Shown here in pieces: positions 1 to 22,888 of a stretch of DNA of 64,000 bases (position 1 is the first letter of the stretch; each line of letters opens with the position of its first letter). The DNA comes from Dehalococcoidia bacterium. Lineage in GTDB: Bacteria; Chloroflexota; Dehalococcoidia; UBA2979. The stretch is taken from NCBI GenBank assembly GCA_965219085.1, contig OZ244720.1, positions 352,001 to 416,000 on the forward strand, in the 5' to 3' direction. The notes under the pieces were generated by a model. It was not told the origin of the DNA. It saw only the letters and a program-made list of their open reading frames with translations, and did no database searches. The position numbers and the translations under genes were made by a program.

Positions 1-3000
1 ACGGTTTCGCCGCTCGTGTCGGTGGGCGCGCTCCAGACGACCGTCAACGACTGGTCGCCCGGCGTCAGTGAATCAATCGTGGCAGCGGCGGGTGTGCCGG
101 GGATTCCGATCACGCTGTCCGACCAGAGGCCGTCGCCGTCGTTGTTGACCGCCCGCACCTGCACGTCGTACGGGACCAAACCGCTGAGGCCGCTGATGGT
201 GTGCGCCAAGCCTTCCCCCGAATTCGTTGTCCATACGTCCGCTACAACGGTCCAGTTCGTGTCTACGGATTCGTCGGCGTCGGACTCGATGTAACGCAGG
301 TCGTAGGCGGTCAGGTCAGACGCGCCGACGTTGGCCGGGGCGGTCCAGGCCACGCTGAGCGCGTAGTCGCTGCTGCTCAGCGACGTAATCGCGGGGCGGC
401 CGGGAGAGCGCCTGTGGCCGTACACCGTCAGGCGCCAGGAAGTCAGGCTGGCGGTTGTCCCGCCTGTCAAGCGGTCGCTGACTCGCAGTTTCCAGTCGCC
501 GGCCGGGTCCTCACCAAGATGCCGAGCCGACCCGAAACGGAACTCGCCATTCAGACTACAGGCGCCACCACCCAGGAAGGCGGAAAGCCTCGCGCATTCG
601 CCGCTGGACCCGAGCGCCTTGGTCAACCGGGATACCGCGCCCGATGGCGAGACCAACTCCACACGCAGGTCGCGGAAGACCGGCGCCTCCAGGGTGACAT
701 CTATCGCGACGAACTCGGTGAACTGGATCTCTGGGCCCATGCTGATGCTGGTCTCGACCGTGGTAGGCGTGCCCGAGGACGGGTTGGGAATCGCCAGATC
801 GACAACGCCCGACTCTTCAGACATGGCAACAAAGTCCGCAAGCCGAGTCCAGTTGTCGGCCAGATCCATCGCCGCCTTGGCATCCACGACGCCGAAGCCG
901 TATTCGCGGTTGAAGTCGTAGTGCTCGGTCGTCGACCCGTACTCGAGTGCGCCCTGTTTCCAGCCGCTGTTTGTCGAGTCGTTCTTTCGCGCGGAGCCGG
1001 CAAGGATGAGCTTGACGTCCCGCCAGGTTAAGTCGTTGTGAGCGGCTCGCAACAGCGCGGCGACGCCGGAGACGATCGGGGCTGACACGGAAGTCCCGTT
1101 GAACTCTCGCGTATAGCCACTACCGCTGGTGGTGGTGGTGACTTCCTCATCGGAGACCCCGGGATCAGCGGACGGTGCGCAAACCCAAAGGTTGGCTCCG
1201 GTTTCCGAATACCCCGCCCGATCCCCTTTGTCGTTGACTGCGCAGACAGCGGTGGAACTGTAGTGGTTGGCGTATTCGTTGAGATTGGCGTACCCGCCGA
1301 TCCGATGAGCGTTGCCGGCTGCCCACACATAGAAGACGCCCTTGCCCCCGTAACCTTCAGTCACCCCCCGCTCCACGGCCAGCTCCCAGATCGCGGGTGC
1401 ATGAGCGTAGCCCCGTCCCCGCGTCGGACCCCAGCTGTTGTTGGAGACAGCGGTTGTGTCCATCGCGCGAGTCATCGCATCTGCTGTGTTCTGATCGGTC
1501 CGGTCCTCGGTCAGGTTGAGGCCGTAGATCTTCGACCGAGGCGCGACGCCTCTGACCCCAATCTCGTTGGCTGCTGCGGCGATGATGCCCGCCACGTTCG
1601 TGCCGTGGGAGAAGTCGGGGTCATCCAAGCCCAGCACGGCGGTGTAGTCGTGGTTGAGGTCGGCGATGACGTTGGCCTTCAGGTCCTTGTGCGTGTAATC
1701 CAGACCGTCGTCGACCACCGCTACGGTCGCGCCGTCCCCCAGCTTGCCGGCCGCCCACACCGCTTCCACGTTGATGTCTTCGCCCGCCGTGCCATCGAAT
1801 TGACCCGTGTTGCGCAAGTGCCACTGACAACCGAAGAGCGGGTCGCTGAGAGCAGTGGCGATCACCATGCAGGCGTCGAGAGAACTGTCGTAAGAGATCG
1901 CGTCAGTCAGGAGCACGACATAGCGTCCCGTTGCGCTGCCGCTTCCCTCAGCGGAGCTGGTCAGCTTCAGATAGTGGGTGCCGGCGTCGAGCCGATCCAG
2001 CAGCGTGACGGCGATGGTGTCGCCCTGGCCGTAGATGTCCGAGAACAGGTTTGCGTCGACCGCTTGGCCGTCCTCATCAAGCAAGGTCGCAGCGAGATCG
2101 ACTGCTGCTCCCGCGGCGGAGATACGGACGTGCATGGCCGCGTCCGTTTCGATTTGGAAGTAGTCGGCATCAGTGGCCGGATCGATGGCGCCTGAGACGG
2201 GTCGACCGAAAGGCAACGGCAGTGCAGTCTCCTTCGTGCCGCCGGGCTCTGTCACCTGTTCCAGACCTACGACGTATCCGCCGACCTGTGCGCCCGCTGC
2301 TGTCACTTTGAGGTAATATGTCCCCGCGTCGAGGGTGACCAGGGCCAGGAAGCTGGTACCCGGGAGGCTTAGCTCCTCGACATCGGAGACTGGCTCGACG
2401 GCGCTGTTGAGCAGCGAGCCCGTCGCATTGACAGCGCCGCTGGCATAGGCGATCAGCGTCGTCTGCTCACTCAGGGTGAACGTGTACCAGTCCTCATCGC
2501 TTCCCTGATCGATGATCCCGGTTCGGACAGCGGCGACTTCGATGGATTGGGCATCGGTCCGGGCGGTCGTGTCGACAATCGTCTCGGTGTGCAGGACGTA
2601 GCTACCCGTCGCGCCTCCATAGCTCGTGACTCTCACGTAGTAAGTCCCGGCATCCAGGGATGTTCCGATCAGGAAGTTCCCTCTTCCCGATGCGATGTTG
2701 CCGTCGTCATTCTCCAGAATCAGTTCGCCGTCCGCGTCCAGCAACTCACCCACGCTGTCCAGATCGCCGCTGGCGCGAATGACGATTCCGGTCGCCGTCG
2801 TCAGTTCGAATTTGAACAGATCGGCGTCGGTCGCCCGCTCAATCATCCCTCCCAGCGGCGTGTTCAGCGGCAGGGTCGAGGATGTGATCAGGGCGCCGCC
2901 AGGTTCAGCGGGTGTGACGCTGGATGTCGCGGACCAGGCCCCCGCGGCTCCGGCGAACGCGCGGAGCTGCACATCGTAGCTCGTGCTGTTGCTGAGTCCG

Positions 3001-3323
3001 GGCAGGACATAGAGCAACGGGCCGCTGCTCCAGATACCCGCAACGACGGTCCAGTTGGCGTCGCTCGTCTCATCGTCCGCGGTGGCGATGTAACGCAGGT
3101 CGTAGGCGGTGATCCCGGTGACGCCGGCGGGCGCCGTCCAGGCGATGGTCAATGATTCGTCACCTGGGGTCACGGAGGTGATGTTGGGGGCAGCGACGGG
3201 CGACTGCGCTCCTGCGTCGCCGGCCATGAATACGATCGCCAGCAGTGCGGCCAACAGCAAGCGGCCGCTCATCAACGCGGTATTCGCAGCGGGCGGCGCC
3301 CGCAGGGTCGTTGTCCTTCTCAA
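1..3323 (-). CDS. Secreted kexin/furin-like S8 serine protease with FN3, PPC-like and P-domains (3' end runs off window)
   Basis: Not in the ORF track (consistent with no stop in the window); translated by hand at several in-frame points: signal MSGRLLLAALLAIVFMAGDAGAQ (ATG 3272, or TTG 3323 overlapping the upstream stop), FN3 (AWTAP..AYDLRY), DPLFGCQWHL, triad VAVVDDG / SHGTNVAG / NGTSVSAP, oxyanion AAGN, P-domain (LVSPSG..GEDPAGDWKL), more FN3. Confidence 0.9.
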   Translation of the reverse strand, partial: MRRTTTLRAPPAANTALMSGRLLLAALLAIVFMAGDAGAQSPVAAPNITSVTPGDESLTIAWTAPAGVTGITAYDLRYIATADDETSDANWTVVAGIWSSGPLLYVLPGLSNSTSYDVQLRAFAGAAGAWSATSSVTPAEPGGALITSSTLPLNTPLGGMIERATDADLFKFELTTATGIVIRASGDLDSVGELLDADGELILENDDGNIASGRGNFLIGTSLDAGTYYVRVTSYGGATGSYVLHTETIVDTTARTDAQSIEVAAVRTGIIDQGSDEDWYTFTLSEQTTLIAYASGAVNATGSLLNSAVEPVSDVEELSLPGTSFLALVTLDAGTYYLKVTAAGAQVGGYVVGLEQVTEPGGTKETALPLPFGRPVSGAIDPATDADYFQIETDAAMHVRISAAGAAVDLAATLLDEDGQAVDANLFSDIYGQGDTIAVTLLDRLDAGTHYLKLTSSAEGSGSATGRYVVLLTDAISYDSSLDACMVIATALSDPLFGCQWHLRNTGQFDGTAGEDINVEAVWAAGKLGDGATVAVVDDGLDYTHKDLKANVIADLNHDYTAVLGLDDPDFSHGTNVAGIIAAAANEIGVRGVAPRSKIYGLNLTEDRTDQNTADAMTRAMDTTAVSNNSWGPTRGRGYAHAPAIWELAVERGVTEGYGGKGVFYVWAAGNAHRIGGYANLNEYANHYSSTAVCAVNDKGDRAGYSETGANLWVCAPSADPGVSDEEVTTTTSGSGYTREFNGTSVSAPIVSGVAALLRAAHNDLTWRDVKLILAGSARKNDSTNSGWKQGALEYGSTTEHYDFNREYGFGVVDAKAAMDLADNWTRLADFVAMSEESGVVDLAIPNPSSGTPTTVETSISMGPEIQFTEFVAIDVTLEAPVFRDLRVELVSPSGAVSRLTKALGSSGECARLSAFLGGGACSLNGEFRFGSARHLGEDPAGDWKLRVSDRLTGGTTASLTSWRLTVYGHRRSPGRPAITSLSSSDYALSVAWTAPANVGASDLTAYDLRYIESDADESVDTNWTVVADVWTTNSGEGLAHTISGLSGLVPYDVQVRAVNNDGDGLWSDSVIGIPGTPAAATIDSLTPGDQSLTVVWSAPTDTSGET

Positions 3324-5281
3324 TAGAGTGTGCTCTCAGTCCACCAGTTGGGGCTGGAGAGCACCACACCGTCCTGGCCGGTCAGCGCGTTTGCCAGGTC
3401 GAGCGAGGGGAAGCCCGGCTCGGTGTCGACGAAGAACCCATTCGGCAGCCAGCCGAGTTCCGATACCCGGCTCACGCCGATCTGATTGCGGACGAAGAAG
3501 TCGTCCACGGCGGCCTGGTCCCAGGCAGCGTCGAACACCAGCAGCACACCGCCGGGCAGCGTCATCAAGGCCCCGGACGGGGAGCGAAACACCGGGAACC
3601 CGCCACTCTTCTGAGCGGTATTGCTGCCGATGTCGCTTCTGACGATCGTCTCTCGCGAACTGATGCCGCCGTCTTTCGTCACGGTCAAATCCACTTGCAA
3701 CCGTGCCTGCAGCGTGCGATCGCCGTCGTCCCAGGTGTAGACGGCGCCCTGGCTCGACGGAAACGCCTCGAGTGTGGGTTGGGTGTTGGAGTCGGGAGTA
3801 TCGGTCTGGTCGCTTATCCCCTCTGGTTCCGACTGATCGACGGGGTCGGGCGGCAGCCTCAGCGCGGCCCGATTGGAGGCGCGGCTCTTCTCAGCGCCGC
3901 GCAGGGCCTTGACTTCGTAGCGGTAGGTCTCGCCCGCCTGAGTCGCGCCGGCGTCGATGTAGCTGGTGGCCACTGAGGCGCTGTTGGCCGGCAGCGTGGT
4001 CAACTGGCCCTGTCCGACGGCGCGCAGGACCTCGTAGCCGGTGACCCTGTCGGCGTCCTCCGCAGGGGCGCTCCAGCTCAGGTCGACCCCGCCGCCGTCA
4101 ACCGCCTCGGCGGTGAGGTCCGACGGGGCAAGGTCAACGGCGTCATGGGGGAGTTGGACCCGGGCCTGGCCGGACGCCTGGCTCCGGTCCTCGCCCCGGA
4201 TGGCCTTGACCTTATAGGCGTAGGTCTCCCCCGCCTCGGTTGCGGTGGTGTCGGTGTAGGCGGTCGCCGTGTTCCCGGTGTCGTCAACCAGGGTGGCAAG
4301 CTCCCCCTCGCCCACGGCGCGCAGTATCTCGTAGCCGGTGACGCTGCCGGCGTCCTCCGCCGGGGCGGTCCAGCTCAGACGAACGGAGGTTGAGGCGGTG
4401 GTGGTGGGGTCCTCCCCCACCAGCACCAGAGACGCGGTCAGGACCACGGCGGTCAGGCCGGTGGGGGCCAAGTCGACGGGGTCGTGGGGGACCTGGACCT
4501 GGGCCTGGCCGGATGCGTCGCTCCGGTCCTCCCCCCGGATGGCCTTGACCTGGTAGGCGTAGGTCTCCCCCGCCCCGGTGGCGGTGGCGTCGGTGTAGGT
4601 CGTGGCCGTTGATTCGGTGTCGGCCACCAGCGTCGCCAGGGAACTCTCGCCCTCGTAGGGCCGCCGGCGCAGAATCTCATAGCCGTCCACGGATTCGGCG
4701 TCCTCGTGAGGGGCGGTCCAGCTCAGGGTCACCTTGTTCCCGACCAGGCTGACCGTCAGGCCCGTGGGGGCCAGGTCTTCAGGGGCCGGCGTGGGTACCG
4801 GCTCCGGGGATGGTGTAGGAGTGGGAATGGGAGTGGGTTCCAGGGTCGAATCCGGCGCTGCCGGGGTCTCGGCCTTGACGTAGCCGGACCACTGGCTGAC
4901 GCCGGTGCGGCTGACCGCCTTCGCCCGGTAGATGTAGGTGCTCGACGCCGATACCGTGCCGTCGGTGTAGCTGGTTTCGGGACCGGCGTTGCTCTCGACA
5001 ACGTTGAAGACCTGGGATGCGTCGGTGTCCCGGTTGCGGCGCAGGATGGCGTAGTGGGTGACCGTCTGGTCCGTCGAGGCCATCCAGGTGAGGGTGACCG
5101 AATCGTGTACCGCCGAGGCCTGGACGCTGGTGGGCTTGGCCGGGGGGTTAGCGCCGGTGGCGGCCGCGGTGGCGGTCACCTCCTGGCTCTGGGCGTGAAC
5201 TGTCAGGGCCACGGCCAGGGTCAGGACCGCGAGTCCGGCAAGGAGCAGCAGGAGCGGCGCGAGACGCCGGGAGGCGATCAC
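3320..5281 (-). CDS. Secreted protein with four FN3 repeats and a conserved C-terminal putative S8 propeptide/chaperone-like domain
   Basis: Signal peptide, four LSW.AP..V.GYEILR..YTD..YAYxVKA-type repeats, PT linker; C-terminal ~140 aa homologous to the end of 19232..20377. Confidence 0.85.
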   Translation of the reverse strand: MIASRRLAPLLLLLAGLAVLTLAVALTVHAQSQEVTATAAATGANPPAKPTSVQASAVHDSVTLTWMASTDQTVTHYAILRRNRDTDASQVFNVVESNAGPETSYTDGTVSASSTYIYRAKAVSRTGVSQWSGYVKAETPAAPDSTLEPTPIPTPTPSPEPVPTPAPEDLAPTGLTVSLVGNKVTLSWTAPHEDAESVDGYEILRRRPYEGESSLATLVADTESTATTYTDATATGAGETYAYQVKAIRGEDRSDASGQAQVQVPHDPVDLAPTGLTAVVLTASLVLVGEDPTTTASTSVRLSWTAPAEDAGSVTGYEILRAVGEGELATLVDDTGNTATAYTDTTATEAGETYAYKVKAIRGEDRSQASGQARVQLPHDAVDLAPSDLTAEAVDGGGVDLSWSAPAEDADRVTGYEVLRAVGQGQLTTLPANSASVATSYIDAGATQAGETYRYEVKALRGAEKSRASNRAALRLPPDPVDQSEPEGISDQTDTPDSNTQPTLEAFPSSQGAVYTWDDGDRTLQARLQVDLTVTKDGGISSRETIVRSDIGSNTAQKSGGFPVFRSPSGALMTLPGGVLLVFDAAWDQAAVDDFFVRNQIGVSRVSELGWLPNGFFVDTEPGFPSLDLANALTGQDGVVLSSPNWWTESTLY

Positions 5282-6059
5282 GAGTTACCCCCGGCCTGCC
5301 AGCACCCACCACAATTCCGGGGGGTACGTATGTGCCAGGTCGCCCTGCACGGCAGACCCCAGCGCGGCGATCGCTTCAGGGGCCAGGAACTGGTCTGTCA
5401 CGCACAACCGGATGCCTTCCCAATTCCCAACCCGGAGTGGCCGGGGCCACCATCGAGCGCATTCCAGCCCGTGATTCGGGTCACATTCTTGACGCTCTCC
5501 CGACATCCTCGTAAGTGCCGGGCGGCACAATCGGCGAGTCATTTTGTTTGCTCGGAGGGGGGACGATTCCGCGACTGAGACAGGTACTGCTGTTGTGGCG
5601 GTCGCTTCGCGCGCGATGGCTGCCGGGTCGTGTGCGCACGGACGTTCCGTCCGCCGTCTCAGGTGCATGCACTGGACTCTCGAGCGCCACGCAAGTGCCT
5701 CCCGTACGAACGGGCCACGTCATGGGAGCGTAACCACCTGGCTCTGAACCTTCGGTAGAAATTGGCCCACGTTCGATGGCAGTTCGGTGACGATCTTCAA
5801 GAAGGGGCTACGGAAGTAACAAGACCATTCTTGCGTGAGTGCCGACCTTTTCCCCTGAGGCTACGTGAGGATTTACTGCATTCCGGGTATGCGCCTGCTC
5901 GCGGACCAGGCGGCGCCGTCAAGGAAGCCGTCCAGGGTGCCACTCCCACGCGCTGCAGGGGCTGCGCGGCTAAAACGACAAAAGGCCCGCACACATGGAC
6001 CGGCAAGGGGAGGCCACCGCAGCTGCTGCGATGGCCTCCCCTCTTGGTCCCGGCCTGGC

Positions 6060-6650
6060 ACCCCACGCCGGCCGGCACCGACTCCCGCTCCCGTTCCAGC
6101 GCCCACTCGAAGAGCGAGATGGACGCGGGCGCGGGCCTGCGGCTGCGGCGCCCAGGCTTCGCCGGCTCCTCCGCCATGAACTCCGCCCAGGAGAACAGCG
6201 ATCGCTGCCGCTCCGGGGTGTCGTCGTCACCGGCGTTGCCCCCAACCGGAACGGCGGTATGGCCGTTGCCGTGGGCGTGAACCTCGACGGCCACCGGCTC
6301 CGGCGCAGCCCACTCGGCGTCGACCAGCAGCGCCTCGGCCTCCGCCGCGACCTGCCGCGCCTGGGCGAAGACCGACTCGACCCAGCCGCCGTCTTCCTCG
6401 CCGGCGACGATCTTCCTGGCGAGCGCCAGCATGAGGTCGTCGCCGTCATCGCCGTAGGCGGCGAGCCCGTCCTCGGGCAGCTCGCCCTCGACGGCGAGGG
6501 AGCTTCGCAGCTTCTTCGCCACGAGCTTCAGGGCGTCGGCCCGCAGGGTGCTCCGGTAGGCCATGAAGACAACCTGCACGGGCTGCGTCTGGCCGATCCG
6601 CCAGGACCTGCGTGAGGCCTGCCGCATCGTGTACACGCTGTAATCGGCTC
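6060..6650 (-). pseudogene. C-terminal fragment of an ICE-type helicase
   Basis: YSVYTMRQASRRSWRIGQTQPVQVVFMAY resembles SF2 helicase motif VI; no N-terminus, begins abruptly at the recombinase 3' end. Confidence 0.7.
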
Positions 6651-8225
6651 CGGTTTGGCAATCGACACGAAATCCTCGTCGGCGGGGATGGCGAGCGTGA
6701 GGGTAACGTTGTTCTCGCCGTCGATCGTCGCCTCCTCCAGCAGCAGGTCCAGCACCTCGCGGCGCTCCGAGTCTGGCAGGCCGTCGAGGCCGCCGCCGGC
6801 GCGGCGCGCCCACTCCACGACCTGCTCCACCGCCACGCGCCGGTCGGCCCGCGCCGACGCCCCCGCCCGGAGCTCGTCGAGCCTCGCGCGGAGCCGCTCC
6901 AGCCGCTCGCCGATGAAGCGCCGCTGGTGGTCGAGTTGCTGCTCGCTGATCTTCCCGCTCACGTAGAGCCGGATCGCGCGGTCCTCCTCCGCCTGCACGC
7001 CCGCCAACTCGCGCTCGGTGCGCGCGGCATCGTCCGCCGCCCCGCCGTCCTCGTCCGGGTCCAGCGCCGCCAGCCCGGCCGCGATCAGGTCCGGGTCCTG
7101 GAGCACGCGCCTGACCTCGCCCCAGACCAGCTCCTCGAGCTGCTCGGCGCGGATGAACGGGTGCTCGCGGCAGCGCAGGCGGTAGGGCGCTCCCATCCCG
7201 TAGCAGCGGTAGTAGCGGCGCGGCGTCTTGAGCCTGTACGAGTACGTCTTGCCGCGGCGCCGCGTGCTCTGGCTGCGGACCACGCTGGGACCCATCAGCA
7301 TCCCGCACTCGCTGCAGTGCACGAGGTGCTGGAGCAGGTGGAAGGTCTTCGTGTTGCGCGGCGAGCGCGTCAGCCGCCGCTCGCGCAGCGTCTTCGCCCG
7401 CTCCCACGTCTCCTCGTCCACGAGCGGCGGGAACGGGACGCCGATCCAGGCGTCGCGGGGCTGCGCGTGCACGCGCGTGCCGGCGTCGGTGGCGGTGTGG
7501 CGGGCCTTGCCGTACCACCAGGTGCCCCGGTAGGCCTCATTGCGGAGGATGCGATTGATCTGCGTCGCGTGCCAGCTTGCGCCGGGCCTTGCCGTGGGGA
7601 CGCCGTCGTCCGTGAGCGCCGCGGCGATGGCCGGCGCGCCCAGGCCGTCGTGGACGTAGTGGCGGAAGATGCGGCGGATGACCTCGGCGCGCTCCTCGTC
7701 GACCTCGGGCGTGCGGGCCTCGGCGATGCGGTAGCCGTCGGGGACGTTGCTGACGGGGATGCGGCCCTGCTTGGCGGTGCCGCGCTTGCCCATCGAGGCG
7801 CGTTCGCGGAAGTTGTCGAGCTCGATCTTGCCGATCGCGGCCATGAGGCCGAAGGTCTTCATGTCGATCGCGTCCATGACGGCCTCGAGGCCGATGCCGT
7901 GCGCCTCGACGACCTCCATGAGGGCGGCAGCGGGGTACATGCCGCGGCTGAGGCGGTCGGACTTCCAGCAGACGATGACATCGAAGCGGCCGGAGGCGGC
8001 GTCGGCGAGCATGCGCTGGAACTCGGGGCGGCTCTTGGACCAGCCGCGCCCGACCTCCTGGTAGCGGGCGGTGATCTCAAGCCCGCGCTCCTCGCAGTAG
8101 GCCTCCATGTCGCTGATCTGCTCGCCGAGGGAGGTCTTGTCGTCCTCGGCCTGGCTCTTGTCGGAGACGCGCGCGTAGATGGCGGCGCGGCGTGTCCCGG
8201 GCTGGTGATGGTTCGTTCCCGGCAT
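6528..8225 (-). CDS. Large serine recombinase (resolvase + recombinase + Zn-ribbon domains)
   Basis: AAIYARVS catalytic motif, SRPEFQRML, DRLSR, Zn ribbon CSECG..YYRC, coiled coil; GAAGGAGG RBS before ATG 8225. Confidence 0.93.
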   Translation of the reverse strand: MPGTNHHQPGTRRAAIYARVSDKSQAEDDKTSLGEQISDMEAYCEERGLEITARYQEVGRGWSKSRPEFQRMLADAASGRFDVIVCWKSDRLSRGMYPAAALMEVVEAHGIGLEAVMDAIDMKTFGLMAAIGKIELDNFRERASMGKRGTAKQGRIPVSNVPDGYRIAEARTPEVDEERAEVIRRIFRHYVHDGLGAPAIAAALTDDGVPTARPGASWHATQINRILRNEAYRGTWWYGKARHTATDAGTRVHAQPRDAWIGVPFPPLVDEETWERAKTLRERRLTRSPRNTKTFHLLQHLVHCSECGMLMGPSVVRSQSTRRRGKTYSYRLKTPRRYYRCYGMGAPYRLRCREHPFIRAEQLEELVWGEVRRVLQDPDLIAAGLAALDPDEDGGAADDAARTERELAGVQAEEDRAIRLYVSGKISEQQLDHQRRFIGERLERLRARLDELRAGASARADRRVAVEQVVEWARRAGGGLDGLPDSERREVLDLLLEEATIDGENNVTLTLAIPADEDFVSIAKPEPITACTRCGRPHAGPGGSARRSPCRLSSWPTGAPCGPTP

Positions 8226-8239
8226 GGCTGCCTCCTTCG

Positions 8240-8277
8240 AATACAAACGGACCCGCCTCCCTGCGGGGGCGGGTCCG
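8240..8277 (-). terminator. Terminator-like hairpin directly upstream of the recombinase RBS
   Basis: Minus strand CGGACCCGCCCCC-GCA-GGGAGGCGGGTCCG followed by TTTGTATT, then the RBS. Confidence 0.5.
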
Positions 8278-8440
8278 CGAGCGGTAGCATGCGGCTCGCG
8301 TCACCTGTCCGCGGGTGGCGCCACGGCCCGGGGTGTTTGCGCACCGCCGGGCCACCTCGTCCCCCTCAGCGTAGCGGGGCTGCGGCGAGGCGGTCAAAGC
8401 AGGGCTGCGACGAGGCGCTTTCCCGGCGATGCACCCTTCC

Positions 8441-8635
8441 CTACGGGACCTCCGGGTGCTCCCCGTCGCCTGCGTGCGAGGCTGCCCGGGTCGCGTGGTT
8501 GAGCAGGATCGCGGCGATGCGGCGCAGCCGAGCCTCGGCGTCGGGGACGGGCCGGTACTCGATGGCGACCACGCGCGGCTCCGGGCCACTGTTGTGGCCG
8601 CGCCCGTTGCGCACTTGCTGCTTCGTCGATCGCAT
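8441..8635 (-). CDS. Small hypothetical protein upstream of recombinase (possible directionality factor)
   Basis: 64-aa ORF co-oriented with the recombinase, GGACGAG before ATG; function inferred from position only. Confidence 0.45.
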   Translation of the reverse strand: MRSTKQQVRNGRGHNSGPEPRVVAIEYRPVPDAEARLRRIAAILLNHATRAASHAGDGEHPEVP

Positions 8636-9347
8636 CTCGTCCGGCCCTCGTATGCCCGTTCCACGGGAAGAGCGTGATGGGCGGGAGCGCCGAACGTAAT
8701 CCCATGAAAGGGGGTTTCATCGGTGATACCTGCGGCCTGCGCTCGCCCGTCGTACTGCCTCTCGCCTCCCGCAAATCGGTGCTGTTGACGGCGATCGAGT
8801 GTGCGGCGGCGAACTCCCCGGCGGAATGCCCCATAGGGGAGGGCGCGCGTGGCAATATCGTCGGACCCGGCTTCGGGCTGCCCCGACGGGTGTCATGGGC
8901 GTGTACAGGGAAAAGACGTGAGTTCCGAGACACGGAAGTCCTCGAAGACGCAGGCAGGTCAAGGGGAAACGCGCCTACAGGACGTGCGGACGAACAAATT
9001 CGGTGGAAGGCCGTATTCCACCGCAAAACGCTGAAAGTTCCGTCGGAGGGAAGTCAAAAGCGGGCCGTAGATGTGCCAGGACGCCGGGTGAACGACGCCT
9101 GGGAGTCCGCACAGCGCCGTGAGGCGAGCTGTGCGCCGCGCTGCGGTCGCGCCCCGGTTTTGGCGCTCTGTCTGCTCACGCTCGGGCTGGGGGCGCTGGC
9201 GGGCTGCGAGTACGGCGATACCGATACCGCTAGGGTCTCGTCGCGAACGAAGGCGCCGGCGGCTGGCCACCGCGGCCGCACACCCCGGCAGGCCCGGTGC
9301 GATTTGCGGGATCAATCCGATGCGGGACCAAGCGCCTACCGTCGCGG

Positions 9348-12300: not shown

Positions 12301-12496
12301 GGAGGTGAACTCGAACCTGTCGCCGTCGCTCCCGCCGAGCGGTTGCCAGGCGATGGTGTCGCCCTCCGGGTCGCTGGCCCGGTACGTCCCGACGAGGAGC
12401 GAACCCTCCTCCTTGATGCCGGGAGTCGCGTCGCCGTTGATGGTGGGCGGCTCGTTGACGGGTCTGACCGTTACGGTGATGTCGATGCTGCCCCTA
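9348..12496 (-). pseudogene. 3' part of giant S8 protease-adhesin: cadherin/Ig-like repeats, WSDG propeller, beta-sandwich, duplicated C-terminal domain
   Basis: Continues the frame of 13679..19235 once IS5 is removed (AEDSAGL-RGSIDITVTVRPVNEP); additional frameshift near 12085; ORF 9348..12008 carries cadherin motifs (PVSATDAND, TDVNEAP). Confidence 0.85.
9360..11025 (-). repeat. Copy A of ~1.65-kb paralogous C-terminal module (inverted relative to copy B)
   Basis: GGPGPTGGGGGP..DFEWTVKHDIEAL..RSEGP nearly co-linear with 24125..25800. Confidence 0.9.
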
Positions 12497-13678
12497 GGGA
12501 TGGTCTGAACAACTCGCCTGAGCGGGTGAGCAGATGCGATCATGGGGCGACCCGGAGAGGGGCGCCCCATGCAGCAGCGTTCGTTCGGCAGCGTCGAGTA
12601 CGAGCACAAGAAGGTCAAGACGAGGCGGCAGGCGTTCCTCGAGCGCATGGACAGGCTCGTCCCCTGGGCTGAGCTGGAGCAGCGCATCGCGCCCGTCTAC
12701 CCGAAGCCGGGCCGCGGGCGCCGCCCCTACCCGCTGCGCGTGATGCTGCGCATCCACTGCCTCCAACTCTGGTTCAACCTCAGCGACCCTGGCATGGAGC
12801 AGGAACTCTACGACTCCCGTTCGATGCTCGAGTTCGCCGGTCTCAGCCTCTCCGAGCCGATTCCCGATGAGACGACGATCCTCAACTTCCGCCATCTGCT
12901 GGAGCGTCATCAGCTGGGAACGGCGCTGTTCGCGACGATCAACGCGCACCTCGCACGGCAGGGGCTGCAGGTGCGCGAGGGCACGATCGTGGACTCCACG
13001 ATCATCAGCGCGCCGTCATCGACGAAGAACCGCGAGCGTGCGCGCGACCCCGAGATGCACCAGACCAGAAAGGGCCGGCAGTGGTACTTCGGGATGAAGC
13101 TGCACACCGGCACGGATGCGCGGACGGGACTGGTCCACAGCGTGAGCACGACGGCGGCGAACGTCTCCGACGTGACCGAGGCGCATCACCTCTTGCACGG
13201 CGGCGAGACGGAGGCGTGGGGCGACGCCGGCTACCAGGGAGTGGAGAAGCGCCCGGAGCACGCGGGGTCGGAGGTGAGCTGGCAGGTGGCGCTGCGTCCG
13301 GGTCTCAGGCGGCAGCTGGCGCCGGGGGGCGCTGAGGCGCAGGCGGAGCGGCGCAAGGCCTCGGTGCGAGCGAAGGTTGAGCATCCGTTTCTCTACGTGA
13401 AGCGGCACTTCGGGTACGCGAAGGTCCGCTACCGGGGTCTTGAGAAGAACCGCGAGCGTCTCACGCTGCTGCTCGGTTTCACGAACCTGTTGCGAGCCGA
13501 GCCTCAGCTCGCGTGATCGCGGGAGCCGTGCGTCCCGAATCGCCCGCCGGAGCGCTTCCGGAGCGACATGGAGGCGAGACCACCCATGGACCGCGGTATC
13601 GGCCCCCGCAGCGCAGCGCAGCGCAGTACGCCGATCGACCCGCACCGCGCCCGATACGCCACCTGTTCAGACCATCCC
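12497..13678 (+). mobile_element. IS5-family insertion sequence
   Basis: Terminal inverted repeats GGGATGGTCTGAACA / TGTTCAGACCATCCC, TA on both flanks (CTAG/CTAA context). Confidence 0.95.
12542..13516 (+). CDS. IS5-family DDE transposase
   Basis: MLRIHCLQLWFNLSD, IPDETTILNFRH, IVDSTII, WYFGMKLH, GDAGYQG, RAKVEHPF. True start may be the second ATG (MQQRSF). Confidence 0.95.
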   Translation: MGRPGEGRPMQQRSFGSVEYEHKKVKTRRQAFLERMDRLVPWAELEQRIAPVYPKPGRGRRPYPLRVMLRIHCLQLWFNLSDPGMEQELYDSRSMLEFAGLSLSEPIPDETTILNFRHLLERHQLGTALFATINAHLARQGLQVREGTIVDSTIISAPSSTKNRERARDPEMHQTRKGRQWYFGMKLHTGTDARTGLVHSVSTTAANVSDVTEAHHLLHGGETEAWGDAGYQGVEKRPEHAGSEVSWQVALRPGLRRQLAPGGAEAQAERRKASVRAKVEHPFLYVKRHFGYAKVRYRGLEKNRERLTLLLGFTNLLRAEPQLA

Positions 13679-16600
13679 TAAGGCCCGCGCTGTCCTCGGC
13701 GCGCACCGTGATGTCGTAGACGTTGTCCCGCCCGGAGTCGGCCGGGTTGTCGGCGTCGGGGATGTTCTTGAACGCAAGCACGCCGGCCTCGCCGAGGTTG
13801 AAGTCGCCCGCGTCGGTTCCCGCCAGCGACCAGGTGTAGGTGAGGCCCGGCTCGTTCTCGGGGTCGCGTGCGCTGAAGGCGGCAAGCGTTCCGTCGTAGT
13901 TCTCGTCGACCGCGATGTCGTCCGCGGGGGTGATCTCCGGCGGTTCGTTGACGTCGCTGACCGTGACGGTCACGTCGAGGCGCCCGCTGAGGCTACCGTC
14001 GGACGCTTCGACGGTGACCTCGTAGTCGTTGTTTCCGTCCGAGTCGGCCCGCGCATCGTAGTCGGGGGGCTGGTCGAAGCTGAGCACGCCGCCGGAGATG
14101 GAGAAGTGACTCCGGTCGTCTCCCGAGAGTGACCACTCGACCGGCGCCTCCTCCGGATCGCTGGCGCGGTAGGTGGCCACGGAGGTCGTTGCGTTCTCCC
14201 GATAGTCCCTGGCCTCCGGCCCCGCGATGGCCGGCGGTTCGTCGAGGTCGGTGACGTGAATCTGCACGGTCGTGACGACCGGGCCGTCGGTGTCCGTGGC
14301 GGTGACGGTCACGCTGTGGCTGCCCTGTTCCTCGTGGTTGAAGGTTGCGCCCGCCTTCGTGCTCAGCTGGCCCGTCGCCTCGTCGAGGTCGAACGAGGCG
14401 GCGTCGGCGCCGCCGAGCGTGTAGCCGACCGCGCCATCGCTCGCCACGGGCGCGACCGGCGGCCCCAGGTCCACGACCCCGGCCGTGTTCTCGACGAGAC
14501 TGCGCGTGGTCTCGACCGACTGGAGCGTGAAGGTGAGGCCGGCGATCCGCTCGGTGGTGAACTTGCCCGTGCCGCGGATGCTCGTGATGACACCGCGCGT
14601 GGTGTCGACGCTGGGTTCGAGCGAGAAGTCGTCGCCCTCCTCGGTGCCGGCATCCCAGGGATAGAGCGGCAGCTCGTGCGAGCGCAGCCAGAGACCGGAG
14701 GCGTTGAGCAGCGGCAGACCGGAGACGCCGACGAACCAGTCGTGGCTGGGCGCGATCATGGTCGTCAGCGTGACCCGCGGGTGCGAGCCGGCGAGTTCGG
14801 CGGTCAGCGTCTTCGCGGTCGTCGGCCCGATGTTGTCGGTGTCGCCAACCAGGACCCCGAGCGCGTTCGCGCCGGCGTTCTGGACCTCGTCTCGCAGGCC
14901 CGTCCAGCCCCCGACCTCCGCCATCGACTCGACACCCGCACTGGCCCTCCCGCCGCTCTCGAGGAAGCTCACGCCGGCGTTGTGGACGCCGCCGATCAGG
15001 CGCGAGAAGTGCGCGCCCGAGGGCAGGCCCGCGGGCGTCACGGCGGTCCTCCAGTCACCCTGGAAGCGGATGCTGTAGGTCGCCGTGGAGGCGAACGGGG
15101 CGGACGGATCGCTTACCGCCGGCGTGAGCGACAGGTCTTCTTTGGTGCGCGTCACCGTGACGCGGTAGGTCCGCGTCGTGGTGCCGTCCTCGGCCGTCAC
15201 CCGTACCCGGATCACGTTCTCCCCGACCGACAGGTCGGCCTGGAAGCCGTTTGCGCTATCGGCGTCGGCGTCGCTGAGTGACATGCCGTTACCGTCGAGG
15301 TACGCGACTGTGGCGTCGCCGTCGCTCCGCGCCGCCTCGACCGTGACCCGCCGCACCGTGTACCCCACGGCCGCCGCGTACTCGGTCGTCTCGCTCGCGA
15401 ACGCGGGCGCCAGCCGCACCCCGGGCAGCTGCAGGCCGCTGAGCGTGGCATCCTCCGAGGGGAGGGTCTGGCCGGTGCCGCTGGCCGACCAGAGGCCCGC
15501 GCCGACCGTGTTCAGCGCCCGCACCTGCACGTCGTAGCCGGCGCCGTCCTCGAGGCCGGTGATGGTTGCGCGGAGGGTGTCGCCGGGGGTCCATGCGACC
15601 GGGGCGGGAGACCACCGGGCGGCGCTCTTGTCCGCGGCGTCGCTGCGGATGTACTGCATGGCATAGGAGCTGATGGCCGCGCCGACGCCGCCGGCGGGCG
15701 CGCTCCACGCGACCGTGAGACTGCGCCGGCCCCCGCTCACCGTCTCGACCGCCGGCGCCCCCGGCACCGTGCGCGGGGTTCCCTCGGATATCGCCGACCA
15801 GTCGCCCGCCCCGACCCGGTTGACCGCCCGCACCTGCACGTCGTAGGAGACGCCGTTGCTCAGTCCCGTGAGCCTGTGTTCGAGCGCGCCTGACGTCCAC
15901 GCGCCGGCGGAGGGAGTCCAGTTGGCGTCCACGGTCTCGTCGGCGCTGGTCGCGATCGAGCGCACGTCGTAGGAGGTGATCGCCGCCCCGCCGTCGTGGG
16001 CCGGCGCTGTCCAGTTCAGCTTGAGCGCGGCGTTGCCGGGTTCGACCTGCGTAATCGCGGGCGCCTCCGGCGCGACCGCCTCGGTCGCCGCCTCCAGGCT
16101 CTCCGACCAGGGACCGGGGCCGGCCTCATTGACCGCCCGCAGCTGCAGTTCGTAGCGCCCGCCCGCGACCAACCCCTCGAGCTGATACGACAACGATAAC
16201 GATCCCGAGGACCAGACGCCGCTCCGCTCCGTCCACCCGCCGCCCTCCGCCTGGCCCGCCGCGTCGCTGCGCCGGTAGCGCAGGTCGTAGGAGCTGACGG
16301 CCGTTGCGCCGGTGTCGGTCGGCGCCTCCCAGACGACGAGGATCGCACGGTCGCGGGCCGCGACCGCGCGCAGCTCGGCGAAGCCCGGGTTGTAGCCGTG
16401 GCCGTAGGCGGTCAGCTTCCAGGAATGGAGTGTTGCGGGACCAACGACTCCCTCGTTGACGATTTCCAGGGTCCATTCGCCGGCCGCGTTCTCGCCCAGG
16501 TGCTTGGCCGAACCGAAGCGCGGCGTCGCCTTCACCCAGGGCTCGATCTCACCTCTGATGGTGAGCGGAAAGACGAGGGTGGATGTCTCCCCGCTGGGAG

Positions 16601-19235
16601 AGGTCAGCTTGATCCGCAGATGCCGGTAGTAGAGGTGGCTGATTTCGAGTTCGACGGCGACGAACTCGACGAAGTCCACATGGGGATCGAGCGTGATGCT
16701 GCTGCTACCGGTCTCGCCGCTGCCAAACACGATCTGCTCGTTGGAGGTCGCGCTGAGTTCGCGCCAGGCGGGCGGGCTGGTCCAGTCGTCGGCCAGCGCC
16801 ATCGCCGCCCCGGCGTCGACCACGCCGAAGCCGTAACTGTGGCTGAACCAGTAACGCTCGTCGGTCGAGCCGTACTTCAGCGCGCCCTCTTCCCAGTGGC
16901 TGTGTCCAGGGTCGTTGCGGCGCGCCGAGCCGGCCAGGATCAGCTTCAGATCGCGCCAGCTCAGCTCGCGATGGGCGGCGCGCAGCAGCGCCGCCACCCC
17001 GGCGACAATCGGCGCCGTGGCCGAGGTCCCGCCGAAGATATGTGTGTAGCGATTGGAGTTGTCAGTCGTGGTGATTCGCGGGAGAAAGCTGAAACCGCCG
17101 GGCGAGGACGGAGCGCAGACCCAGAGGTTGGCGCCCAGCTCCGAGTAGCCCGACCGCGCGTCTAGGTAATCGACGGCGCAGGCCGCCGTGATCCCGTAGT
17201 GATTCGCCTTTGAGTCATAGTTGGCGGTGTCGCCAAAAGCGGAGCCGTTGCCGGCGGCCCAGACGTAGAAAACGCCCTTGCCGCCGTAGCCTTCGTGCAC
17301 CCCGCGCTCGACCGCCATCTCCCAGGGCCTCCCCGCGTAGTGGTACTGGCCATTGTCCTCGAAACCGTAACTGTGGTTCGAGACCGCGACCTCCGCCATC
17401 TGGTGCACCAGCGCGTCGATCCGATCCGCCCCTGTGCCCAGCAGCGCGCGATAGCTGTAGAGCGTCGCTCTGGGCGCGATTCCGCGAACGCCGAGGGCGT
17501 TGTCGCGGGCGCCGATCACGCCGCCCACATACGTGGAATGCCAGTCGGTCCTGCTATCCCAGGGCACCTCCGGCGTGTAGTCGTGACTGCCCTCCAGGCT
17601 GATGTTTGCGCTCAGGTCTTCGTGATCGAGGTCCAGCCCATCGTCGACCACGGCCACGTTGACGCCCGCGCCCTTGTTGGTCGCCCAGATCTCCTCGACA
17701 TTGATGTCCTGCCCCGCTCCACGGCCGTACTGCCCGGTGTTGTTGAGGTACCACTGGCAGCCGTACAGGGGGTCGCTCTGTGAGGAGCCGCGGGACAGGC
17801 AGTCCCGCTCCATTTCTCTCGTCTCCGGATCGAGCTGGGCCGCGAGCGTGTACGCTTCTGTCCGATCGCCGCTCATCGTCACGCGCAGGTGGTAGACGCC
17901 CGCGCCCAGGCGGATCATGCTCGCGACGCTGGATGGGCCCAGTGCATATAAGCCGCAGCCTATCCCCCGCGTGACGCTGATCCCGACGGGGTTCCCGTCC
18001 GCGTCGGACAGCGCCATGTTGAGCCGGAACCGCTCGCGGTCGAATTTGAGGGCGCATAGCGTCACTTCGCCAGGCGTGGGCACGCTGAGGCTGAAGTAGT
18101 CTTCGTCGCCGGCCGGTTCGATCCGGCCGGCTGCCGGCAGGTCGAACCTGAGTGGGGTGGCGGCAGCGATCGAGTCGCCGGGATCGCCCGCCGCCGCCGT
18201 GTAGAGGATGTAGGGCCCCTCCTCTCGGGCAGCGAAGCCCTCGACCCGGATGTAATAGGTACCCGCATCAACTTGTGCGCGAAGGTTGAACCCGAGGTAG
18301 TTCCCGGGCAGCGAGCCGTCGTCTGAATCGGCGATCGGTTCGTCGTCGGCGTCATATAGCCCGCCCACCGTATCGGTCGCGCCGATCGACATCACCCAGA
18401 GGTCGGTGGCTTCGGTCAGCACAATCCTGAATCGGTCGACCCAACCGTTCCGGACCAGGCGAGCAGGCGTCAGCGAGCCCAGCTCGACCCTCTTCGAGGT
18501 GCTGCTGCCCACGGCCTGCACCGCGGCGGCGTGCAGCCGGTAGTCGACCGGCGCTGCGCCCTGTTGGCCGCGAACGATCACGTAGTAGGTTCCGGCGTCA
18601 ACTACCTCGCGCAAAGAGAAGTTGCGCGGATTGGGCGGCAGCTGGCCGTCGCCATTCGAATGCAACACCGTGCCGCCTCGGGTCAGTTCGCCCGCGGTAT
18701 CTGCCTCGCCCGTCGTATAGAGCCACAGATCGGTCTGCTCTTGGAGTACGATCCTGAAGCGATCCTCGTCGCCGCCGGTGTCGATCCGTCCCGGGAGTGA
18801 CCTACCCAGCGCCAGCTTCGTGGCCGTCGCGTCGGTGCCGCCGTGGTCGCTGGTCGACGCCGATGTCGTGGCCGACCACTCGCCGGGACCGACGCTGTTG
18901 ACGGCCCGCAGCCGCACGTCGTAGGCGACCCCGTCCAGCAGCTCCGCGAGCGTGTAGCTGAGTTCGCCATCGCTCCAGACGCGCGTCACGAGTGTCCACT
19001 TGTCATCGGCCTTGTCCGTCGCGGCGCTCTCGATGTAGTGCAGGTCGTAGAACGTGATCGGTGAGTCGCCGTCACTCGCCGGCACGGTCCAGCCGACGCT
19101 GAGCGAGTTCGTCGTGGCCGTCAGCATGATCCCGGTCGGCGCCGCCGGCACGGCCTGGGCGCGCGCCTCATTGGCCGCCACCCAAGCCACCAGCGCGCAG
19201 GCAATGATGACCGCGACCGCGACCCAAGCTCTCAT
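13679..19235 (-). pseudogene. 5' part of giant secreted kexin-like S8 protease-adhesin (FN3, PPC-like, S8, P-domain, FN3 x3, beta-sandwich, Spondin_N, cadherins), interrupted by IS5
   Basis: ATG 19235 (MRAWVAVAVIIACALVAW) overlaps the upstream stop; VAVVDDG / WHSTYVGG / GGTSATAP; MIAPSHDWFVG..YPWDAGT spondin motif; frame reads into IS5 and stops at 13479. Confidence 0.9.
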
Positions 19236-20377
19236 CGCAGCGTGATCTGCGATCGCCAGTTGGGACTGGCGATCAGCACGCCGTCCTGCTCGGCCAGCGC
19301 GTTGGCCAGCTCCAGCGAGGCCCAGCCGGGCTCGGTCGCAACCAGGAAGGCGTTGTCGGCGAAGGCCTGCGCCGTGACGCGGTCCGGCTTGATCGCGTTG
19401 ACCGAAAAGAAGCGGTTGATCCGGGTCTCGTCCCAACCCGGATCGAGCACCAGCAGCACACCGCCGGGCAGCGTCACGAGCGATCCGCCTTCATTTCGGA
19501 AGACCGGCGGCCCGCCCTCGGCGTGCCGCGCGCGGCGCTCGACGATGCTCTCGCGCCCGTCGTCGTGCAGGACCACATCGTCCTTGGCGTTCGCGCTGCT
19601 GCGCTGCAGGACGAGGTGGGGCTGCAGCCGGGCGCGCCTCGTGCGGTCGCCGTCCCGCCAGGTGTAGGGCACGCCCGCGTCAGCGTCCGTCGGCGCCGGC
19701 TTGGAGACGGTTGTCGCGTTCCCGGCCGGATCGGCGGGCGCCTGCCGGGCGCCCCCGCTCGGCGCGCGGGCCCCGCTGGGCGCGGCGGGCCGCTCCGTGC
19801 CTGCGGAGGACGCAGGCGTGCCCGAGGCGTCGGCCTCCGGGGACGGAGTGGTGGCGCTCGCCGTAGCTGGAGCAGGGGTGGTCGCCGCGGCTGGCGTAGG
19901 GGCGGTCGGCGTGGTGGCGGTTGCCGTGGCCGGACTGGTGGCGGTTGCCGCGGCTGGCGTGGTGGCGGTTGCCGCAGCTGGCGTGGTGGCGGTCGCCGTG
20001 GCCGGACTGGTGGCGGTTGCCGCGGCCGGACTGGTGGCGGTCGCCGTGACGGGAGCGGTGGTGGTCGCCGGCTGTGAGCGCGCCCCGACCGCGGCCTGCG
20101 TCGCGATTACGGCGGGGCTGGCGGTCTCCGCGGTCGCGGGGCTGCCCGCATGGGGCTCGCGCACTCCGCCGTCTCCACAGGCGAGGAGGACCGCTGCCCA
20201 CACGGCCAGCAGCACAAGCGCCGACCCGCCGGCCCCCGGGGCAGGCCAGCGCCACGCTGGCGGAAGACGGCGTGGGATCGGCGGCCGACGCCGTGCCGCG
20301 CGCCGTATGCCCACCGCCGGCACAGCGTCACCCGCCTGGCGGACGCCCCCTCCGAGAAGTGCTCGCATCCCGTGCAT
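19232..20377 (-). CDS. Lipoprotein with Thr/Ala/Pro stalk and conserved C-terminal putative S8 propeptide/chaperone-like domain
   Basis: Lipobox VLLA-C, TATATSPA repeats, C-terminal YTWRDGDRT..PVFR..TLPGGVLLVLD..SLELANAL..SPNWRSQITLR. Start codon uncertain. Confidence 0.8.
   Translation of the reverse strand: MHGMRALLGGGVRQAGDAVPAVGIRRAARRRPPIPRRLPPAWRWPAPGAGGSALVLLAVWAAVLLACGDGGVREPHAGSPATAETASPAVIATQAAVGARSQPATTTAPVTATATSPAAATATSPATATATTPAAATATTPAAATATSPATATATTPTAPTPAAATTPAPATASATTPSPEADASGTPASSAGTERPAAPSGARAPSGGARQAPADPAGNATTVSKPAPTDADAGVPYTWRDGDRTRRARLQPHLVLQRSSANAKDDVVLHDDGRESIVERRARHAEGGPPVFRNEGGSLVTLPGGVLLVLDPGWDETRINRFFSVNAIKPDRVTAQAFADNAFLVATEPGWASLELANALAEQDGVLIASPNWRSQITLR
19903..20048 (-). 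repeat. Coding 24-bp tandem repeat, about 6 copies ([T/A]ATAT[S/T]PA)
   Basis: Visible in both translation and DNA (GTGGCGGT[T/C]GCCG units). Confidence 0.85.
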
Positions 20378-20530
20378 CGGCCATAGGGAGCGCGGGGCGC
20401 GGGGAGGGTGTCAATGGGATAAGGGGGCTTGGTCAACAGCGCCGAACACGAGCGTGGAGGCGACCGTCCGTGGCGGCTCCCGCCGCGCTCCGGGCGTCGT
20501 GACGCGCGCGCTCACCGACGGTGCATGCAC

Positions 20531-20690
20531 TGTCGGCGTCCAGCGATCATGTCACCTCAACTCCTCAGCGAATGTCTCACTCGAGGCGGAGGTCTCGACC
20601 CGGGACGATGTAGCGGAGGGCGTCGCGGAGGCGGGGCATCGGCGAGGACGTACCTCCGGAACGGTGTGGCGGGAGATGCCGAGGAGCGCC
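20531..20690 (-). mobile_element. Right-end remnant of an IS481-like element
   Basis: LLGISRHTV/RRYVLA matches the C-terminus of the 58342 transposase (LLGISRVTVSNYV); the end TGACATGATCGCTGGACGCCGACA matches its right end TGACAGAATCGCTGCACGTCGACA. Confidence 0.75.
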
Positions 20691-21250: not shown

Positions 21251-21329
21251 CGTTAGCTCACCGAGGCGTGCGCGCTGTCGTCACATGGCGGATGCCCTGG
21301 GGGTGCCCAGCGGCGTGCTGGGCCCTGGG

Positions 21330-22259: not shown

Positions 22260-22384
22260 GATATCGAGTGTCCATGGCGGATCCCTGGGCGGGTAGTACC
22301 GTGCCCGAAGCAGATTATGCCATAGCGAGCCCTGTGTTAGGGATAGTCTCGCTATTGGTAAGAGAGGATTCTATTATTGCTCGA

Positions 22385-22790: not shown

Positions 22791-22888
22791 ACTGCGGTGC
22801 TGCGGGACCCGCTGCGCCGCGCCCTAGGTTTCAGGGGGAACCGTCTGAAGAGCGGCGCCTAGCTGCGACGTGATTGGGGGTCTGGACA

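Follow-up and report, generated by a model that had tools for sequence, protein, structure and literature searches.

Subtilases serve in textbooks as the example of enzymes folded by an intramolecular chaperone, and the DNA analysed here raises the question of what could take over that role when a subtilase carries no prodomain of its own. The stretch, hereafter the window, comprises 64,000 nucleotides of a Dehalococcoidia bacterium (assembly GCA_965219085.1, contig OZ244720.1, positions 352,001 to 416,000), whose genome is a 3.3-Mb single contig of approximately 70% G+C and 92.7% completeness. Four minus-strand open reading frames (ORFs) in the window form two pairs, each consisting of a gene for a large S8 protease and, upstream of it, a gene for what we call its partner (3320-5281 with 3-3323 in pair 1; 19232-20377 with 13681-19235 in pair 2). 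We propose, with a probability of roughly 70%, that the last ~150 residues of each partner are the prodomain of the neighbouring S8 protease, separately encoded and acting in trans as its chaperone and temporary inhibitor. We prefer this reading because six in silico lines agree on it: the fold of the domain, its predicted docking, a fixed C-terminus in Lys or Arg, the gene neighbourhood, the existence of fused forms and a weak profile similarity to classical prodomains. A first-pass annotation of the sequence had already taken the domain for a detached propeptide displayed on a tether; the propeptide part gains from these six lines, whereas the tether seems to apply to only part of the family.

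Prodomain-less proteases and their upstream partners

The two partners differ at their N-termini and agree at their C-termini. Partner 1 (P0001, 653 aa; 3320-5281, minus strand, start GTG at 5281) has a signal peptide, four FN3 stretches and a Pro/Thr linker, and partner 2 (P0002, at most 381 aa; 19232-20377, minus strand, with a start that is uncertain between 20377 and 20314) has a hydrophobic segment running to LLAC and a Thr/Ala/Pro stalk; in each, the putative detached prodomain follows at the C-terminus. These N-terminal parts are unrelated, and BLASTP aligned the C-terminal parts only (65 of 146 identities, 45%, E = 1e-36; residues 512-652 against 235-380, equivalent to window positions 3323-3748 and 19235-19675), in agreement with the first-pass annotation, which had described a shared terminal domain behind dissimilar N-termini. 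The shared domain of partner 1 (3323-3748, minus strand) consists of an N-terminal beta part with YTWxDGDRT, then a predicted beta-alpha-beta-beta-alpha-beta unit, and ends in SPNW plus WTESTLY, whereas that of partner 2 (19235-19675, minus strand) ends in SPNW plus RSQITLR, with the last residue, Arg, being typical of the family. No Pfam prodomain family was matched in P0001 or P0002 at E ≤ 0.1.

Both proteases contain Peptidase_S8 (PF00082; E = 4.7e-42 and 5.7e-33) and the proprotein-convertase P-domain (PF01483; E = 2.7e-13 and 2.4e-16), and by this combination of S8 triad and P-domain their sequences class them as kexin-like (MEROPS S8B-like). In protease 2, the catalytic D43 and H78, the oxyanion N175 and S250 are all present, in columns that are kept across 39 sequences. 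Protease 1 (P0003; 3-3323, minus strand, likely start ATG 3272) is represented in the window by the N-terminal 1107 aa of a 3075-aa protein: a signal peptide is followed by FN3 (~2904-3191), three PPC-like repeats (1839-2906), S8 (960-1739), the P-domain (426-713) and FN3, with FN3, cadherin-like, Spondin_N, cadherin and Big_9 domains beyond the window edge. Protease 2 (P0004; 13681-19235, minus strand, start ATG 19235) has the same order of signal peptide, FN3, three PPC-like repeats (17772-18854), S8 (16905-17672) and P-domain (16410-16667), with three FN3, cadherin-like, Spondin_N and cadherin domains thereafter, and its frame enters an insertion sequence at ~13680. No Pfam prodomain family was matched between the N-terminal FN3 and the catalytic domain of either protease, and because the three PPC-like repeats fill this gap in both (PF04151 matched 3 of the 3 segments in protease 1 and 2 of the 3 in protease 2, some under the curated cut-off), there is no room for a cis prodomain, bearing out the earlier statement that FN3 and PPC-like domains, and no propeptide, stand ahead of the catalytic domain. 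At the far end of protease 1 (L114:1096-1995, minus strand), the last ~200 residues are two ~90-residue copies of a unit with two conserved Cys, reading WP.CLRG...GFSLVVYEGGSVEEL..C..., to which Pfam assigned no family at E ≤ 1e-5 and which may be a wall- or host-binding module.

The junctions within the two pairs are not equally clear. In pair 2, partner stop and protease start overlap as ATGA, and the overlapping ATG opens a good signal peptide (MRAWVAV...), making a coupled start credible on sequence grounds. In pair 1, TTGA is present, but the overlap is uncertain because an ATG at 3272 (MSGRLLLAALL...), 48 nt past the stop, yields a more canonical signal peptide than the TTG does; the 4-nt overlap previously read at both junctions thus stands for pair 2 and is doubtful for pair 1.

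Size, fixed end and gene neighbourhood of the domain family

A profile of 40 domain-only sequences (A4), searched against 1.84 billion cluster representatives (50% identity), matched 1050 clusters at E ≤ 1e-3, of which 715 passed E ≤ 1e-10 and 333 passed E ≤ 1e-30; this sets a lower bound of 1050 such clusters for the family. The domain reaches the last residue of the protein in 145 of the 150 best profile matches, whereas the other five are proteins of 783-5724 aa that carry it close to their N-terminus. A word-based search returned 80 relatives of 209-667 aa with no Pfam domain on record, few of them named and all of those as 'hypothetical protein', and a Pfam scan of 40 family members down to E ≤ 10 gave no prodomain family. 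Relatives are encoded in 301 stretches of a species-level genome collection; the locus counts given here rest on 80 of these 301. In each of the 77 unfused loci the stop falls exactly 7 residues past the invariant SPNW, and the tail closes with Lys in 59 loci, with Arg in 15 and with Gln, Ser and Tyr in one each (Lys or Arg in 74 of 77); partner 2, ending in SPNWRSQITLR, belongs to the Arg group.

The unfused loci span at least five phyla, with source metagenome-assembled genomes labelled Dehalococcoidia, Tepidiformaceae, Acidimicrobiia, Candidatus Multivorans (Acidobacteriota), Holophagales, Candidatus Binatia and Thermodesulfobacteriota. The Acidimicrobiia loci include Candidatus Poriferisodalis, Aldehydirespirator and Spongiisociaceae, and names of this kind suggest that some hosts are associated with sponges. 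Cadherin, leucine-rich repeat (LRR), fn3 and Calx-beta are listed among the eukaryote-like domains enriched in sponge symbionts in the available part of a paper on sponge Actinobacteriota, a part in which proteases go unmentioned (PMC11706023).

Of the 80 loci, 77 (three of these being fused) encode S8 and P-domain on the strand of the domain and no more than 6 kb downstream of it; 70 give one unbroken match to the whole 475-residue query, and the protease frame is broken in 7 of the 77. The first-pass annotation had proposed such a survey and held that homologues rarely adjacent to S8 genes would speak against a propeptide; adjacency is the rule. A start codon placed for a 4-nt overlap with the partner stop occurs in 15 of the 74 unfused loci with a downstream S8, and in many other unfused loci the first downstream start lies within ~200 nt of the partner stop. 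The association recurs within the host genome, where a catalytic query gave 17 matches, corresponding to ~15 protease genes; their open frames span 1982-4735 aa, and five of the genes lie together at 589-687 kb (within G000:C1, 587-690 kb). A profile census of this genome placed the domain at 11 sites, each of which is followed on its own strand, 1.15-1.5 kb further downstream, by an S8 catalytic domain.

Domain and protease share one open frame in 3 of the 80 loci (L009, L025 and L031). The five fused forms among the best 150 matches carry the domain N-terminal to the PPC-like repeats, with S8 and P-domain confirmed in 2 of the 4 that were scanned, and four long fused proteins run in the order signal, FN3 or PPC-like, domain, PPC-like repeats, S8, P-domain and adhesin-type tail. 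In L025 and L031 the sequence reads SPNWWREVGTR-QDP, retaining Arg where split proteins end; fused P0085 and P0087 have Ser at that position and no signal peptide of their own after the domain. In a tree of 306 domain sequences (midpoint-rooted, no outgroup), 13 fused forms fall in two clades, implying at least two changes between the split and fused states.

The mode of export varies. An N-terminal hydrophobic segment occurs in 76 of the 80 partner ORFs, with a lipobox-like motif in 27 of the 80 and some other hydrophobic segment in 49, many of the latter with AxA-type cleavage motifs, and linkers of 13-197 residues, in which Pro, Thr, Ala, Ser, Gly and Glu are abundant, follow; partners with AxA motifs may be soluble. 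In partner 2, the 15-residue hydrophobic run and the LLAC behind it belong to the protein only if its start codon lies at ORF residue 1-22, and a database twin was called at 310 aa, without the LLAC segment. Partner 1 has a signal peptide with a likely cleavage site between VHA and QS and may be released rather than anchored. Tethering is therefore plausible for part of the family and not as a general feature: the label 'surface-tethered' in the first-pass annotation suits partner 2, given its start-dependent lipobox, and about a third of the relatives, and probably does not suit partner 1 with its likely cleavage site. Four RNA runs contained 5-7% of the sampled words; the assembled contigs (~100 nt, mostly of 90-99% likeness) fell on the FN3 repeats at 4011-5400, with almost none on the putative prodomain or the junction among the short contigs placed from these four runs.

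Fold, predicted docking and rival readings

AlphaFold2 (AF2) models were obtained for all 156 residues of copy 1 (predicted local distance difference test, pLDDT, 81.5) and for the last 94 residues of copy 2 (pLDDT 87.5). The last ~80 residues fold as beta-alpha-beta-beta-alpha-beta, with ~60 residues of beta hairpins, including YTWxDGDRT, in front. In exhaustive structural alignments against 48161 representative chains, considering the 50 best matches of each search, the PC1/3 prodomain bound to furin (9fid_D) ranked first for copy 1 (Z 6.7, root-mean-square deviation (rmsd) 2.1 Å, 69 residues) and second for copy 2 (Z 6.3, rmsd 2.5 Å, 67 residues). Pro-subtilisin E, EpiP, CspC and the propeptide chain of an Aspergillus alkaline protease stood lower in both lists, and POIA1 (1v5i_B; Z 5.2, rmsd 3.5 Å, 68 aa) and a PAM protease chain appeared for copy 1 only. 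ORF2, the partner of the Aeromonas protease ASP, and fervidolysin were absent from the 50 best matches of each of four fold searches and may stand at lower ranks. Structure prediction, proposed as a check in the first-pass annotation, thus gave a propeptide-like fold, with a prodomain at or near the top of the exhaustive alignments at scores that are modest and tied.

Sequence likeness to prodomains was sought by profile-profile alignment (hhalign) of A4 with 25 classical PF22148 (Fervidolysin_NPro-like) prodomains from 18 of 81 genomes of the same phylum. This gave P = 0.0074 (score 20.7) over 89 columns in register, spanning the whole beta-alpha-beta-beta-alpha-beta unit and placing PGGVLLVLD on PGqvLVkFk and GVxxSSPNW on nVeYAEPNY; a control with reversed sequence gave P = 0.57. 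In a protein-language-model comparison, both copies had as neighbours clusters carrying PF22148 (scores 0.95 and 0.94; 11-16% of members), followed by clusters with PF18492 (ORF_2_N; 0.87-0.88); these are treated as leads rather than proof. A weak NqrC match in a PDB profile search was traced to low-complexity N-terminal columns of the alignment used (A1) and was discarded.

The complex prediction that had also been proposed was run for pair 2, with the partner domain (153 aa, alignment A3) and the catalytic and P-domain of protease 2 (460 aa, alignment A2). The interface score ipSAE was 0.92 in each of three runs and 0.00 in the best of three controls. Of 80 solved complexes, 58 attain this mark, and of 110 mismatched pairs, 2 do; the runs shared at least 94% of contacts, with partner pLDDT of at least 88. 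The modelled interface involves, on the protease side, His78, residues 172 and 174-175 (Asn175), 248-250 (Gly248-Thr249-Ser250) and segments 110-125 and 134-156, and on the partner side all of residues 145-153, that is, the entire tail including the terminal Arg. The tail of partner 2 is thus predicted to lie on the catalytic His, Asn and Ser of protease 2, at the active site. Cleaved subtilase prodomains bind with the same mode as modelled here. Tail and S1 loop, compared for covariation on few and related cases, gave a mixed picture: in all 4 proteases whose partners have a non-basic tail, column 176, beside the oxyanion Asn, is changed, and column 181 is Asp in 32 of 34 proteases with basic-tail partners and differs in 3 of 4 with non-basic ones.

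By analogy with prodomains and with ORF2, from whose behaviour we infer the chaperone need and inhibition, the following course can be envisaged. Both proteins would cross the membrane by their own signal peptides, and the beta-sheet of the prodomain would pack on two surface helices of the nascent catalytic domain, with the 7-residue tail in the substrate cleft and its free C-terminal Lys or Arg (Tyr in pair 1) filling S1 as P1 does in a cleaved propeptide. Such docking would template folding, and the enzyme would stay inhibited until the prodomain was degraded or released. Depending on the variable N-terminal half of the partner (lipoprotein anchor, signal-anchor, cleavable signal, FN3, or Pro/Thr/Ala stalk), some partners might hold the complex at the surface and others would probably be soluble.

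Several results weigh against a detached prodomain. The fold is consistent with a prodomain and is not diagnostic of one, because Z scores are below 8 and tie with those of RRM, ribosomal protein S6 and FtsX domains; with Foldseek, neither model reached a match at E ≤ 0.001, the best E being no better than 0.02, and PDB sequence searches with one protein and two profiles returned nothing relevant. Neither PF22148 nor PF18492 matched anywhere in the whole genome at E ≤ 10, and the hhalign probability of A4 against the PF22148 set is only 5%. The complex score may stem from the model's memory of solved subtilase-prodomain complexes, and user-supplied alignments were also fed to it. Partner 1 ends in SPNWWTESTLY, an atypical tail whose Tyr is neither Lys nor Arg; tails within this one genome vary (R in four; Y in two; H, S, T and Q), and its covariation pairs are mixed, with a Tyr tail, for example, facing Gly and Asp at columns 176 and 181. 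The varied tails may reflect paralogous proteases that have diverged in P1 preference. Three loci had no downstream S8 within 6 kb (5.3 kb visible in L078): L005 is followed by a convergent major facilitator superfamily (MFS) transporter gene on the opposite strand, L046 by an M19 dipeptidase and then an RCC1-repeat protein, and L078 by a giant protein of cadherin and FN3; the orphan partners of L005 and L046 retain the full domain and a Lys or Arg tail. In the host genome, no partner was detected for 4 of the ~15 proteases (catalytic domains at 305943, 326833, 1931823 and 3095651), and 4 of the 11 domain copies are remnants (profile positions 63-149, 88-148, 99-148 and 123-149). Because of these partnerless proteases and remnant partners, and of the three loci among 80 without S8, the partner cannot be strictly required in the form of a cis neighbour.

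This last observation leads to the possibility that the domain is a dedicated inhibitor and anchor, capping the active site and holding the protease latent on the surface of the producer while the enzyme folds alone: proteases that lack a partner or have only a remnant of one may not need a cognate neighbour to fold, stand-alone I9-type inhibitors such as POIA1 exist, lipobox-like anchors are found in about a third of the partners, and the modelled docking and the tail would suit such an inhibitor equally. We consider it unlikely, given that neither protease has a cis prodomain, that the many partners with cleavable signals would be unable to anchor, and that the studied propeptide-less subtilase with a separate partner, ASP, needs ORF2 for its maturation (PMC5638518). 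The tied fold scores and the lack of any hidden Markov model (HMM) match to prodomain families would also fit an unrelated C-terminal module, a co-secreted adaptor, a substrate or a unit that binds the cell wall, that stands beside the protease through operon layout and has a generic ferredoxin-like likeness. The stop 7 residues past SPNW in all 77 unfused loci, the basic last residue in 74 of them, the N-terminal, prodomain-like position in fused forms, the complex score of 0.92 against 0.00 with the tail on the catalytic triad and the motif in register with classical prodomains make it highly improbable. Fused forms and broken protease frames (7 of 77) might finally suggest that the pairs are artefacts, with one pre-pro-protease gene cut in two by sequencing error or recent nonsense mutation. 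All 77 unfused loci, drawn from at least five phyla, are split at one shared codon, 145 of the 150 top family members end there, and the window proteases open with their own signal peptide, which is absent after the domain in fused P0085 and P0087; this explanation is scarcely credible.

A detached prodomain acting in trans remains the reading we favour, and its implications can be drawn at different ranges. A literature search that did not extend to supplements and subscription journals found no description of this split family, and in the literature searched ASP/ORF2 of Aeromonas was the only studied natural exception to intramolecular chaperoning that we met. The family would constitute a second split-prodomain design with no sequence relation to ORF2, and a common one (at least 1050 clusters; 301 genome loci), with a sharp C-terminus that would mimic the cleaved P1 residue, naturally split and fused versions and varied tethers; it could supply an annotation for a large set of 'hypothetical' proteins and a natural series for asking why prodomains become detached. 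A further use may be as an entry point to the very large proteases with FN3, cadherin, Spondin and LRR domains that uncultured bacteria encode and that may act on host matrix. Extending this, the ~15 paralogues with tails of R, Y, H, S, T and Q in one genome, together with at least five phyla and sponge-related names, prompt the tentative and rather doubtful idea of a surface holster, in which a lipid- or membrane-tethered prodomain would fold a giant protease-adhesin and keep it latent and docked at the bacterial surface through its P1 mimic until contact or proteolysis set it free, as part of a horizontally shared toolkit for the remodelling of host matrix.

Genomic surroundings and comparison with known systems

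The surroundings of the two pairs contain features that the first-pass annotation had not mentioned, namely the insertion sequence in protease 2 and a duplication of pair 2, as well as the further proteases of the genome. The insertion sequence (12494-13680, plus strand; 1187 bp) carries a transposase ORF of DDE_Tnp_1 and DUF772 (12542-13516), has ~15 more copies across the genome at 92-97% identity, and interrupts protease gene 2, whose frame continues for ~60-odd unrelated residues after ~13680 and then stops. ORFs of cadherin and Big_9 repeats beyond it (9348-12687, minus strand) are probably the severed C-terminal tail of protease 2. The pair 2 region including the insertion sequence (11001-22275) has a second, inverted copy ~480 kb away (G000:C1:852997-864315; 98% over 11.3 kb), either a recent segmental duplication or an assembly duplicate. 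Between the pairs lies a large serine recombinase (6528-8246, minus strand) with Resolvase, Recombinase and Zn_ribbon_recom domains, and this intervening DNA may be mobile. Cadherin and cadherin-like repeat proteins at 22874-25840 (plus strand) and 9348-12008 (minus strand) gave weak matches to NCH3 (NACHT C-terminal helical domain 3), and one recurs in protease 1 (residues 2649-2678); no stretch passes alone, and the matches probably reflect a common repeat rather than a NACHT module.

Among known systems, the most distant parallel is Lif, the lipase-specific foldase of Pseudomonas and Burkholderia, a membrane-anchored, separately encoded steric chaperone beside the gene of its secreted enzyme. 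The likeness would lie in the concept only, that of a private, separately encoded chaperone beside its enzyme, since fold and enzyme class are unrelated. Closer in kind is the stand-alone I9-type inhibitor POIA1 (1v5i_B), likewise a free-standing prodomain-like protein for a subtilase; yeast PBI2 is another. Such inhibitors are not known to share an operon with a propeptide-less target or to carry a tether or extra domains.

With the cis prodomains (I9 PF05922, PF22148, and PC1/3 in 9fid/9fie), the family shares the modelled beta-alpha-beta-beta-alpha-beta fold, a closing motif V-x-x-x-x-P-N-[YW] from which a short tail leads to the cleavage point, a predicted contact with the catalytic domain in which the tail occupies the cleft and, in fused relatives, the N-terminal position. 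Unlike them, it is encoded by a separate gene with its own export signal, the same-chain arrangement being confined to fused relatives; it has an extra ~60-residue beta part (YTWxDGDRT), and in fused forms three PPC-like repeats precede the catalytic domain. It also lies below HMM detection, with no I9 or PF22148 match and a profile-profile P of 0.0074 only.

The nearest counterpart is the ASP/ORF2 system. ASP of Aeromonas is a kexin-like protease that needs ORF2, separately encoded just downstream, for maturation; the C-terminal region of ORF2 binds around the catalytic site with its terminal Lys, residue 336, at the catalytic Ser, ORF2 inhibits ASP with a half-maximal inhibitory concentration (IC50) of 84 nM, and homologous asp/ORF2 operons occur in Vibrio, Shewanella, Chromobacterium and Pseudoalteromonas (PMC5638518). 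Unlike that system as described there, the partner gene lies upstream rather than downstream of the protease gene, and the hosts are uncultured Chloroflexota, Actinomycetota, Acidobacteriota and others rather than members of the Aeromonas, Vibrio and Shewanella group. The family matches neither PF18492 nor PF22148, its partners carry lipobox or signal-anchor segments, stalks or FN3 arrays, and its proteases are multi-domain proteins of 2000-4700 aa, of which fused forms exist. As with Aeromonas sobria ASP and ORF2, however, a propeptide-less kexin-like S8 protease with a P-domain is paired with a separately encoded neighbour, and the terminal Arg or Lys of 74 of 77 members, modelled for the Arg of partner 2 at His78, Asn175 and Ser250, would correspond to the C-terminal Lys of ORF2.

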